Virus record (IMG/VR): IMGVR_UViG_2568526312_000015
Length of the DNA stretch: 54,892 bases
DNA from: a virus
Taxonomy: Duplodnaviria; Heunggongvirae; Uroviricota; Caudoviricetes
Direction: 5' to 3' (one strand)
The position numbers were made by a program, and so were the translations under genes. Under the pieces are notes generated by a model. The model made no database searches. It saw nothing but the letters and a program-made list of their open reading frames with translations, and had not been told where the DNA came from. Below are positions 37,839 to 40,934 of the stretch, one piece after another; position 1 is the first letter of the stretch; each line of letters begins with the position of its first letter.

Positions 37839-38612
37839 TCAAAAATTAGGTGAGTAACGGACCGGGGACATAGCTCCTTTTTTTCTTAATTCATCTGGTA
37901 TTTTTTTTCCAAGATAAAGATTTGCTATTTCAGGTGGGGCTTCTCGACCTTCAAAACCATAGCGAGAACTTTGTGTTGCCTCAAAGTCCGGATCCTCGTC
38001 CCAGTATTTCATCGTAGGGAAATTTTCACGTGTTGATTTGAGCCATTTATCAGCAATGAAAACCCCTCGAACGATCCCCCTTACAGTAGCAAGAATGACT
38101 TCTGCTTGGCTGGCGCGAGAGACATTAATGCGCCAGCTAAATCGAACCGCATCATAAAGCTCTGAATCCTTTGCACTTCTGTTAACGGAAATCATTAATG
38201 CTTTATGATGAAATGTTATGGTTTCGGGTTGATATGTTGCTATCAACTCTTTGACATGCGCGGCGCCGAATTCATTGCTGCCAGCACCATTCATGATATT
38301 CGTTAACCCAGGGTAGGCATCAATAAGTGCTGCTTCGACTTCGTACGCCGTCTTTTCATCAGTCATTCCGTGTCGATGGATGACATGGATAACCTCAAGT
38401 CCTGCTAACCTTATTTCTCTAATTTGCTTTAGCTTGTTGCTCAGTAACTCGTCATCATCAGTCGCTGCCACTTCACCGCGCATATGGGCAAATACGCGGT
38501 TACCTTTGCCTTTCCCTACATAGAAGGTGCTTCCGTCCCTCGGATCAATCAATCGGTATACATACCAGCCAAGGTGTTCAATTACTCCAGAAGGAAACTC
38601 AGTAATATCCAT
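37839..38612 (-). CDS. GIY-YIG nuclease-domain protein (cargo gene)
   Basis: N-terminal [29 protein letters not shown] matches the GIY-YIG signature; opposite strand to the late genes; near attR. Confidence 0.6.
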
Positions 38613-39427
38613 TTTGCAATATCTATGAATTATTCGTGAGACGTATATTAATGAACATTGCAAGGGCTCACAACCAGTAGTGTTGAGAAAATCATCGGGG
38701 AAATGAGGCTAAGTCTTTGAATTTACATAGTACAAAAAAGATACTTTTCCTCATAATGTGAATTAATTTTATGTTTCGTTTGATGATTGGACCGGTCTCG
38801 AAAACCGGAGTAGGGGCAACTCTACCGGGGGGGCAAATCCCCCTCTCTCCGCCACTTTATCAATGACTTATCTCCCGACTTCCCGCCTTGCTTTTCCTAA
38901 ACAGAACAATCGTAGAATATTCTTGAAGGGTTAGATCGTCACTGTTTTCTGTTCGATACTGTGACATTCAGCACTTGATTCGCTATGGATCTGACAGGAA
39001 GGTTTCGAGCGAAAATCTGCAGTTATTCAGTCGTTTTCTTATCGGTCACCATTATTCTTTTAGACATTGATCCTACAAAGCTGCCGCAAAGTTGGTGGTG
39101 GGAACTGAAGTTGCGTAGAGAAGGGGTCAATACCCGGAGGCAAACATGGGCTGGCAAAAGTGTAGCGGTATTAGGCGCAGCTATTTAGCCTAGTTATGTT
39201 TTATGAAAACTTGATATCATATAAGTGTCTTACTTATTGGCTGTAAATAAGTTTTTCCTAAGGAATTGTTTCTTGAGTATCATTTGTAACTGTAACGGAA
39301 TTTATAATCCTTTGCTTTATTGTTACGGTATTTTTTATCACACCCTATTTTTAGTGGTTTTTTATACTGAAGTTTGGCAAAGTGAACTTTATATACATAT
39401 ACTTCATCCTGGTTTCAGTTAAATTGG

Positions 39428-40180
39428 GTGGATGATATGGCAACTACATGTTCAGTTATATTGATTTTGGAGTCCTTTGATGTTTATTTCGGAAAAGAGA
39501 GTGTGTTTCTGGAGAGAGGTTCATCTGTACTTGTCGACTCTAGCTCTAGAGATTTTTTCCTGACATATCCTGAAAGAGTGATAGTGGCGGATTTTGGCGC
39601 TGAGTTTATTAGTCGCTATTTGAAAGCTAATAACTTAAGGGATATTTCTGATTGTAGGGAATATCCATCTTATTTAAAAATAAACTTTGCTGACTTCAGT
39701 TTAATTAAAGGATTAATTAGTTGGGCTAATCACTGTGCTGAATACATAGAAATTTTTGATGAGTCTATTGCTTTTACATGTCTCTCTGCATTTTCTTCTG
39801 AAAAACAATTTGGAGTATTTCTGTTTGGATGTTTGAAAAGCACAGGGGCTAAAGTTAAAACGATTATTCATACGGATTTATCTGCACCATGGCGTCTTAA
39901 GGATATATCATCAAGATTATATCTCAGCGAAAGTTTACTAAAGAGGAAATTGAAAGAAGAGGGGGTATCATTCAGTAAGATCATACTTGATGAGAGGATG
40001 CAAATGGCTGAATATTTACTCAGCACTCGTTGTTATCCTATTAGTAAAGTAGCTAAGGTCTGTGGTTATGCCAGTGTCTCATACTTTACTTATGTATTTA
40101 GACGTTATTTTGGTGTTTCTCCAAGTCAATACTCTCAGAGGAGTTCAGAAAGTAAAATTCTTACTCACCAGGGAATCTGA
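39428..40180 (+). CDS. AraC-family transcriptional regulator (cargo gene)
   Basis: 250-aa ORF; C-terminal double HTH region (ISKVAKVCGYASVSYFTYVFRRYFGVSPSQY); low-GC gene. Confidence 0.7.
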   Translation: MDDMATTCSVILILESFDVYFGKESVFLERGSSVLVDSSSRDFFLTYPERVIVADFGAEFISRYLKANNLRDISDCREYPSYLKINFADFSLIKGLISWANHCAEYIEIFDESIAFTCLSAFSSEKQFGVFLFGCLKSTGAKVKTIIHTDLSAPWRLKDISSRLYLSESLLKRKLKEEGVSFSKIILDERMQMAEYLLSTRCYPISKVAKVCGYASVSYFTYVFRRYFGVSPSQYSQRSSESKILTHQGI

Positions 40181-40221
40181 TCATTGTTCTTGCCCCCTTA
40201 TTTCCAGACAGGGGGTGTATC

Positions 40222-40587
40222 TTAAGTTAACGTTACCCGCTGACGTCGATATTCTCGCGGAGAGCGATAACCCAACGCACTGTGCGGATGGTTTTCATTG
40301 TAATGTTCGATCGCCACTGCAAGATTATGCAATGCCGTTCTTACATTCGGTTTCGGCATGAACGCGATATAGTCTTCCTTCATCGTTTTCACGAACCTTT
40401 CTGCAATTCCATTACTCTGAGGACTGCTGATTGCCGTTGTGCAGGGCTCCAGATTCAACTCTCTGGCGAACTGCCGTGTTTCATGCGCTCTATACGCTGA
40501 ACCGTTATCTGTCAGCCACTGGATGGACTGTTCCGGTACTTTATCGCCAAAGCGTTTTTCTATCGCTCCTAACATGACATCCTGCAC
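40222..40587 (-). pseudogene. Remnant of an IS3-family (IS2-like) transposase orfB, C-terminal part only
   Basis: 121-aa fragment with the DDE-domain C-terminal pattern (WLTDNGS.YRA...[11 protein letters not shown]...[19 protein letters not shown]); no 5' portion or intact IS ends. Confidence 0.7.
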
Positions 40588-40934
40588 TGTCGCTTTATCG
40601 TAACCTCCCGTGCTTGCGGCCCAGTCTATGGCTTCACGATCGCAACAGTCCAGGGCGATTCATCTGGGCCAATCCTCGCTCATAACAGGCATTCACTTCA
40701 GTCATGGCAGAAAGGTATGCATGCTGGAGAAGTCGTGAAAGAAAAGAAGACTGCTGCGCCGTTTGTCGTCACGTTTATCTTCATTGGCTATGCAAGTCGT
40801 AATACAAGGTGGGACAAAACTGAGACACATAAGGCCTCGCAATGGCTTGCAAGGCTTTACATGTTTTGATGTGGTGGGACGTGTGAGCGCAGTGTTGATG
40901 GGGTAATGCTTTGAATTAGAAGCGGATTCTTATA

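Follow-up and report, generated by a model that had tools for sequence, protein, structure and literature searches.

Two questions are raised by the region next to the right attachment site (attR) of the prophage in IMG/VR record IMGVR_UViG_2568526312_000015: what do its cargo genes encode, and do they belong together? The whole stretch of 54,892 nucleotides was analyzed and is referred to as the window. It includes an SfV-like prophage of 39.5 kb inserted at thrW and delimited by a perfect 47-nt direct repeat of the tRNA-Thr thrW 3' end (copies at 1399-1445 and 40935-40981; chance expectation 0). The cargo slot (37779 to ~40675) holds a GIY-YIG nuclease gene, a non-coding stretch of 824 bp, a gene for an AraC-family regulator, and an insertion sequence (IS) fragment. 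A first-pass annotation made from the letters alone had placed all of these elements between pin and attR, where they were indeed found, and the adjacency to attR was shown by the 47-nt repeat. With a probability of about 0.93, the slot consists of two independent and already characterized accessory modules ("morons"), the restriction endonuclease CMoRE/PD-T4-3 and the regulator PatE, joined at a fossil attR of the serU type. The identities, boundaries, distribution, and fossil attR were computed, and the enzymology, defense phenotype, and PatE regulon were taken from the literature; we infer the activity of the window allele, the location of the promoters, and the order in which recombination took place.

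The GIY-YIG gene encodes CMoRE/PD-T4-3

The minus-strand open reading frame (ORF) runs from a TTG codon over 37839-38663 (274 aa). The first-pass estimate of about 257 aa from the likely start was exact, as the ATG at codon 18 is the true start according to the RefSeq annotation and the fit to the crystal numbering of Y17, Y19, and Y31. The ORF matched Pfam PF22945 (LEM-3_GIY-YIG; E 2.4e-14) and, end to end, the PADLOC model of PD-T4-3 (PDLC04031; E 2.7e-140; ORF residues 18-273 against model positions 1-255 of 256). A search of Protein Data Bank sequences identified the CMoRE of E. coli O157:H7 (9U75/9U8D; E 2e-172) with 98.4% identity, 253 of 257 residues being the same in a gapless alignment. 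The crystallized protein corresponds exactly to Sakai ECs_0285, and the window protein was 85.2% identical to the enzyme of avian pathogenic E. coli (APEC) O1 (9U7U). The protein had been suspected of being a nuclease for restriction or exclusion at the place that mcrA takes up, and the PD-T4-3 model match, the identity to CMoRE, and the same slot in e14 all agreed with this; the function of a restriction gene after pin and beside attR was thus correctly predicted from position by a reading of the sequence alone.

CMoRE is a type IV restriction endonuclease cutting T-even phage DNA that carries 5-hydroxymethylcytosine (5hmC) or glucosyl-5hmC (ghmC) (PMC12923530; Nat Commun 2026;17:1920). Expression from its native promoter protects against T-even phages, the protein is functional alone in BL21, and the APEC O1 enzyme is also active (PMC12923530). 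The enzyme is a tetramer requiring two modified cytosines ~21 bp apart, its GIYxY-YIG motif comprises Y17, Y19, and Y31, and a lid loop of four consecutive acidic residues keeps it from normal DNA, the mutation of this loop to alanines causing toxicity and lower specificity (PMC12923530). Modified cytosine is read by a C-terminal domain of new fold that contacts 5hmC through Y127 (PMC12923530); the C-terminal domain that had been called unknown from the letters alone is this published modification-sensing domain. In independent work, a 48%-identical homologue cut T4 DNA and spared the cytosine-containing DNA of T4 GT7 (PMC12366544), and in strain NILS69 PD-T4-3 was one of only two defense systems active in the native host (PMC12409345). 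The original source of PD-T4-3 was ECOR68, and the structures 9U75/9U8D are of the E. coli O157:H7 enzyme.

The motif was present in the window protein as G15-W-Y17-V-Y19-R...F30-Y31-V-G-K-G (counted from the ATG), and Y127 of the sensing domain, the interface residues V92/L96, and R80 were all conserved. The neighbors of the gene were pinE and non-coding DNA with no cognate methyltransferase, as expected of a single-component system. Compared to Sakai ECs_0285, the locus, motif, acidic lid loop, sensing domain, and single-gene organization were the same, and the differences lay in the four substitutions and in the setting: a full-length 39.5-kb SfV-like prophage in the window versus the 10.6-kb Sp1 remnant in Sakai/EDL933. 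Judging by the 98.4%-identical and APEC O1 enzymes, the window allele probably cleaves 5hmC/ghmC DNA and protects from T-even phages. Its C-terminal domain would recognize the modified base, the GIYxY-YIG domain would cut, the acidic lid would spare host DNA, and the lysogen would be protected from T-even phages.

GIY-YIG is also the classical fold of homing endonucleases, and full-length homologues with 38-45% identity in jumbo phages carry the label "homing nuclease" or "G-I-Y Y-I-G endonuclease". That the window gene is a homing endonuclease of the selfish kind, intact or as a remnant, from which the host gains nothing, is nevertheless extremely unlikely in view of the modification-dependent cleavage and anti-T-even defense demonstrated for the 98.4%-identical enzyme, and this possibility, which the first-pass annotation had itself raised, conflicts with the defense phenotype under the native promoter and the activity of a homologue in its native host. 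In addition, the gene had no intron or intein context, Pfam detected the GIY-YIG domain only and no NUMOD/IENR-type DNA-binding domain, and the gene travels free-standing as a moron beside attachment (att) sites in several prophages. The window and Sakai alleles differed by 23 synonymous and four non-synonymous codons, which argues for purifying selection.

The four substitutions between the window and crystallized proteins (T51A, E55D, Q169K, and N197H) might have inactivated the enzyme or altered its specificity or autoinhibition. T51 and E55 lie in or adjoin the acidic lid loop, in which alanine mutants are toxic and less specific, and Q169 is a lysine in both tested enzymes. An altered enzyme is still improbable, since the run of four acids was kept (D52-D53-D54-E55 in the window, DDDD in Sakai) in the form DDDE found in the active APEC O1 protein, with which the window protein also shares E55 and N197. 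The identical protein (WP_000355484.1) was moreover conserved in the unrelated strains and prophages of TW10828, G8, and MB15, and the exact sequence occurred on at least 1000 contigs. The reading of the gene as a CMoRE of the published type was therefore retained, and its native promoter probably lies within 38613-38788, an interval that keeps its place beside the CMoRE module, colinear with it, in TW10828, S5, G8, and MB15.

As a separate observation, the jumbo lytic phages with full-length CMoRE homologues infect Serratia, Pectobacterium, Pantoea, Pseudomonas, and Klebsiella. The homologues, annotated as homing endonucleases, aligned with 97-99% coverage, the C-terminal sensing domain included, for example at 6406-7161 in Serratia phage Moabite and 158703-159449 in Pseudomonas phage OBP. 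A putative role of these proteins could be the exclusion of co-infecting phages with hydroxymethylcytosine-modified DNA.

The AraC-family gene is patE

The ORF at 39428-40180 (plus strand; RefSeq start 39437) had been described as a low-GC AraC-family regulator, in line with its 35% GC against 51% for the prophage overall and a match to HTH_AraC/HTH_18 (E 1e-16). HTH_18 covered residues 161-238 (model positions 2-80 of 80) and HTH_AraC matched in two stretches, showing the C-terminal double helix-turn-helix (HTH) of the AraC/XylS family. The protein was 100% identical to Sakai ECs_0287, and WP_000246059.1 is common to the window protein and the sole AraC-family gene of the EDL933 thrW prophage (OI-8/CP-933H). 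It aligned full length with the NCBIfam YdeO model (residues 4-238; E 3e-43) and also matched GadX (E 8e-32), with scores far below the equivalog cut-offs (YdeO, 148 vs. 348 bits; GadX, 110.5 vs. 500 bits). PatE was therefore assigned as a paralogue within the group of glutamate decarboxylase (GAD) regulators that is not truncated, and orthology with YdeO or GadX was rejected on the same curated cut-offs. It belongs to the same family and the same GAD acid-resistance network as PsrA/PsrB, YdeO, GadX, and AppY.

The primary paper on PatE is reportedly that of Bender et al. in 2012, on Z0321 in OI-8/CP-933H of EDL933. Z0321 was listed in O-island 8 as "putative regulator (prophage CP-933H)" with six-fold RpoS dependence (PMC2907692), and its Sakai counterpart ECs0287 was increased by log2 2.9 (~7-fold) when cells entered stationary phase (PMC2241611). 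Z0321 and PatE are treated as one protein in a review, which describes an AraC/XylS regulator that turns on gadB, gadC, gadE, and hdeAB, the last through the hdeA promoter segment from -132 to -45 that is also bound by PsrB, and that lowers the expression of espA, espB, espZ, and tir from the enterocyte effacement locus (LEE); phenotypes of patE deletion and overexpression have been published (PMC10877973). The suggestion that the regulator could rewire host gene expression fits this record, the window protein being identical to an activator of gadBC/gadE/hdeAB and repressor of the LEE. From this literature, the window PatE would be expected to activate gadE, gadBC, and hdeAB and to raise acid survival: an RpoS-dependent protein, induced at stationary-phase entry, would switch these genes on and turn LEE expression down. 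Relative to EDL933, the protein showed no difference and held the same position beside the IS fragment and the attR of the thrW prophage, the surrounding prophage alone being different. A consensus promoter scan, with total counts not above the shuffled expectation, matched TTGGCA-18-TATACT at 39374-39403, which is a candidate patE promoter.

A GC content of 35% is typical of DNA silenced by H-NS and a dead IS element adjoins the gene, features that a silent or decayed pseudogene would also have. Such a truncated or non-expressed reading frame, likewise considered in the first pass, is scarcely tenable for a protein that aligns in full with the YdeO model and has both HTH motifs, that is strongly expressed in an RpoS-dependent manner as Z0321 and induced ~7-fold at stationary-phase entry as ECs0287, and that has published deletion and overexpression phenotypes. 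An intact patE is thus the preferred reading.

The neighboring IS3-family transposase had already been taken for a decayed fragment, and its ORF (40222-40587, minus strand) matched only the C-terminal part of the NCBIfam IS2 TnpB model (positions 172-289 of 301). RefSeq lists it as a pseudogene missing the N-terminus and the Sakai annotation reads "ISEc48 Family: IS3 partial". A functional IS3-family element was rejected as no complete transposase, with N-terminal HTH and full DDE domain, was present.

The modules are mobile independently of each other

Two further contexts held the CMoRE module (37778-38807) without patE, at 97% identity. In the thrW prophage of TW10828 it follows pinE and is followed by a lone restriction endonuclease gene (6308-7219 of comparison locus L006), and in a lambdoid prophage at ssrA of strain S5 it follows a tail fiber assembly gene and is succeeded by genes for a cytosine methyltransferase and a type II endonuclease (6238-8914 of L007). 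Because other restriction genes directly follow the CMoRE module in TW10828 and S5, this tail-fiber-distal, att-proximal slot behaves as a small defense hotspot. The patE cassette (38793-40658), in turn, was found without CMoRE at 99% identity in the viable lambdoid phages ev099, PhiR70_1, and mEp332, in which it lies between stf/tfa and int, and in a prophage remnant adjoining bioA; the identity with ev099 ends at 40658. Among 5426 complete E. coli genomes, 821 contained the CMoRE module, 519 the patE cassette, and 370 both together with pin. Divergence between the window and Sakai was concentrated at 36000-38800 and almost nil from ~39000.

These distributions bear on whether CMoRE and PatE form one functional unit, such as a nuclease under PatE control. 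The two genes are divergent neighbors over a common 824-bp spacer and occur together with pin in the 370 genomes, as a coupled pair would. Each module, however, is widespread without the other in different phage families, the genes are separated by a fossil att site and by DNA captured from the chromosome, the divergence from Sakai ends exactly at their joint, and CMoRE works alone in BL21. A functional coupling is accordingly very unlikely, and two separately acquired modules remain the favored explanation.

A fossil serU attR joins the two modules

The spacer (38613-39436) had been described as an AT-rich non-coding stretch. It is non-coding and its ends are AT-rich (32% GC at 38613-38792 and 34% at 39133-39436), but the middle (38793-39132) is serU-derived DNA with 46% GC. 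A 3' fragment of the serU tRNA-Ser(CGA) gene, extending from the anticodon arm to CCA, was identified at the left of this middle part. It differs from K-12 serU by TT>GG in the T loop and is therefore not a functional tRNA; ARAGORN called no tRNA at 38789-38854. An Rfam scan of 37000-42000 with permissive E-values gave nothing near gathering score and only weak tRNA-like matches on the serU fragment, and the spacer thus has no known small RNA or riboswitch.

The 340 bp at 38793-39132 were ~97% identical to the serU locus in the genomes listed across the ranking of matches, and the cassette query had a match in 5405 of the 5426 complete E. coli genomes. The same stretch also matched the attR of prophage SerU-LTIIb. 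An ordinary attP that is absent from uninfected chromosomes was considered for the 340 bp and is contradicted by the serU-locus matches.

In the alignment, the stretch common to the CMoRE and patE modules is the anticodon arm of the serU tRNA-Ser(CGA), GGACCGGTCTCGAAAACCG. The prediction that the site is the attR of a phage bearing CMoRE and formerly inserted at serU was examined with a chimeric query, which identified MB15 and RMDEC332 as having exactly the order pinE-CMoRE-serU 3' fragment-flank-yodB; their CMoRE protein is identical and their backbone is the same SfV-like one. Single-nucleotide polymorphisms in the flank of the window were of the ev099 cassette type and not of the chromosomal type, which places the crossover between 38793 and ~39001. 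The conclusion that a fossil attR in the spacer joins two independently mobile modules, pin-CMoRE and patE with the IS fragment, is well supported.

The pin-CMoRE end would derive from an SfV-like phage integrating at serU, the patE cassette, also circulating in lambdoid phages, would have brought the 278 bp of serU-flanking DNA and the dead IS fragment, and the two would have been joined by recombination at the serU tRNA att core. More tentatively, tRNA att cores may be docking points for cargo swaps between SfV-like myoviruses and lambdoid siphoviruses, and the patE cassette may have become phage-borne through imprecise, specialized-transduction-like excision at serU; we consider this somewhat less probable than its opposite.

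Several findings count against the combined interpretation. An intact serU-flank-patE arrangement, sought with a chimeric query, was found in 0 of the 5426 genomes, which leaves the idea that patE arose on the chromosome at serU unsupported. No published assay of the window CMoRE allele (T51, E55, Q169, and N197) was found in the accessible literature, and T51 and E55 are in or adjoin the autoinhibitory loop. The consensus sigma-70 scan of the minus strand upstream of CMoRE gave no match. Finally, Z0321 is equated with the window ORF by where the gene lies, by its family, and by its being the only one of its kind in the EDL933 thrW prophage, which makes the correspondence a probable one in place of a match to a printed sequence.

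Comparison with the cargo slots of e14 and SfV

The K-12 e14 order ymfQ-stfP-tfaP-tfaE-stfE-pinE-mcrA-attR is paralleled in the window by ymfQ-stf-tfa-tfa-stf-pinE-CMoRE-...-attR. McrA thus occupies the same slot, directly behind pinE and ahead of attR, in a prophage whose tail-fiber/invertase backbone is related. McrA targets 5-methylcytosine and 5hmC but is not known to target glucosylated hydroxymethylcytosine. It is an unrelated HNH nuclease encoded on the plus strand, whereas CMoRE is a GIY-YIG enzyme encoded on the minus strand that cuts ghmC DNA, and the two are positional and functional analogues. Homology of the GIY-YIG protein with McrA was rejected since no HNH match was obtained in Pfam or NCBIfam.

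The slot had also been said to carry O-antigen conversion (gtr) genes as a rule in SfV-type phages, and in SfV this slot, bounded by the tail fiber assembly gene and int/attP, was found to hold gtrV-gtrB-gtrA. This too is lysogenic-conversion cargo; the gtrABV genes of SfV/SfI/SfII, phages with a 97.5%-identical backbone, act in surface modification, as against intracellular restriction and regulation in the window. The att-proximal slot of SfV/e14-type prophages alternates between O-antigen conversion, type IV restriction, restriction-modification, and host regulators.

For E. coli O157:H7, the two genes and what they do have been published before, the nuclease with crystal structures, and the discovery value of the locus is small given that both were studied experimentally in the same pathotype. 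As a detail of phage mosaicism, the fossil serU attR is modest but apparently unreported, and it provides a concrete molecular trace of cargo shuffling between phages and integration sites.

Features of the slot and its borders

TABLE 1. Coordinates of the features in and around the cargo slot, numbered on the window.
Feature	Position	Strand	Remark
pinE DNA invertase, left border of the cargo slot, controlling the upstream invertible tail-fiber segment	37224..37778	+	
CMoRE/PD-T4-3, single-gene type IV (5hmC/glucosyl-5hmC-dependent) GIY-YIG restriction endonuclease	37839..38612	-	257 aa
AT-rich (32% GC) region upstream of CMoRE; P arm of the serU-type att site	38613..38788	.	
serU tRNA-Ser(CGA) 3' fragment, 66 nt, anticodon arm to CCA	38789..38854	+	fossil attR core
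Chromosomal DNA of the serU-yodB intergenic region, carried with the cassette	38855..39132	+	278 bp
AT-rich (34% GC) patE upstream region	39133..39436	+	
patE (Z0321/ECs0287), AraC/XylS-family regulator	39437..40180	+	247 aa
IS2/ISEc48-like element (IS3 family), truncated, closing the patE cassette on the right	40185..40658	-	
attR-proximal arm of the thrW-integrating SfV-like phage, right slot border	40676..40934	.	259 bp
attR core, 47-nt copy of the thrW 3' end	40935..40981	+	perfect direct repeat with 1399-1445

The invertase gene at the left border matched Pfam Resolvase (E 1e-51) and HTH_7, bears the RefSeq name pinE, and was 89.5% identical to the pinE region of e14. At the right border, 40676-40934 was 95% identical to the same position of TW10828; its conservation in a related prophage with different cargo identifies it as the phage's own att arm.

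Prophage setting and neighboring elements

The window DNA is that of E. coli O157:H7, FRIK944 and many other O157:H7 chromosomes being 100% identical to it (for FRIK944, over 37100-41100). The baseplate/tail DNA (30000-35278) had 97.5-97.8% identity to Shigella phages SfI, SfII, SfV, and SfIV, and beyond ~35278 it gave way to an e14/P2-type invertible tail-fiber segment with pinE. This segment (34975-37196) encodes a fiber and an assembly gene on the plus strand and an alternative fiber C-terminus and assembly gene on the minus strand, under pinE control as in e14, P2, and Mu.

Sp1/CP-933H of Sakai/EDL933 is a 10.6-kb remnant with lambda-type cI/cro/cII/O/P. It shares with the window prophage only the int end (1-2384) and the tail-fiber/pin/cargo end (36066 onward), the unshared middle being 2385-36065 in the window and 5998-10736 of comparison locus L005 in Sakai. 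According to the FRIK944 annotation, the baseplate assembly gene at 31315-32378 is frameshifted, and tail production by the prophage may be abolished. In the early region, a 15-nt unit similar to TCAAAATCTGACCCG was repeated about six times in tandem with overlaps (7521-7643); these copies may represent iterons or repeats of an operator.

Directly to the right of attR is a P4-like satellite (Sakai Sp2; 41143-53845). A third thrW copy bounding this neighbor was sought, and only the two copies were found. The satellite's defense hotspot, especially 42328-45604, carried a decayed Lamassu system with LmuC intact, LmuA broken into a pair of ORFs (10-140 and 141-333 of the 336 model positions), and LmuB broken into three (3-199, 231-412, and 428-608 of 610). 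Sakai and EDL933 carry annotations of these same breaks.

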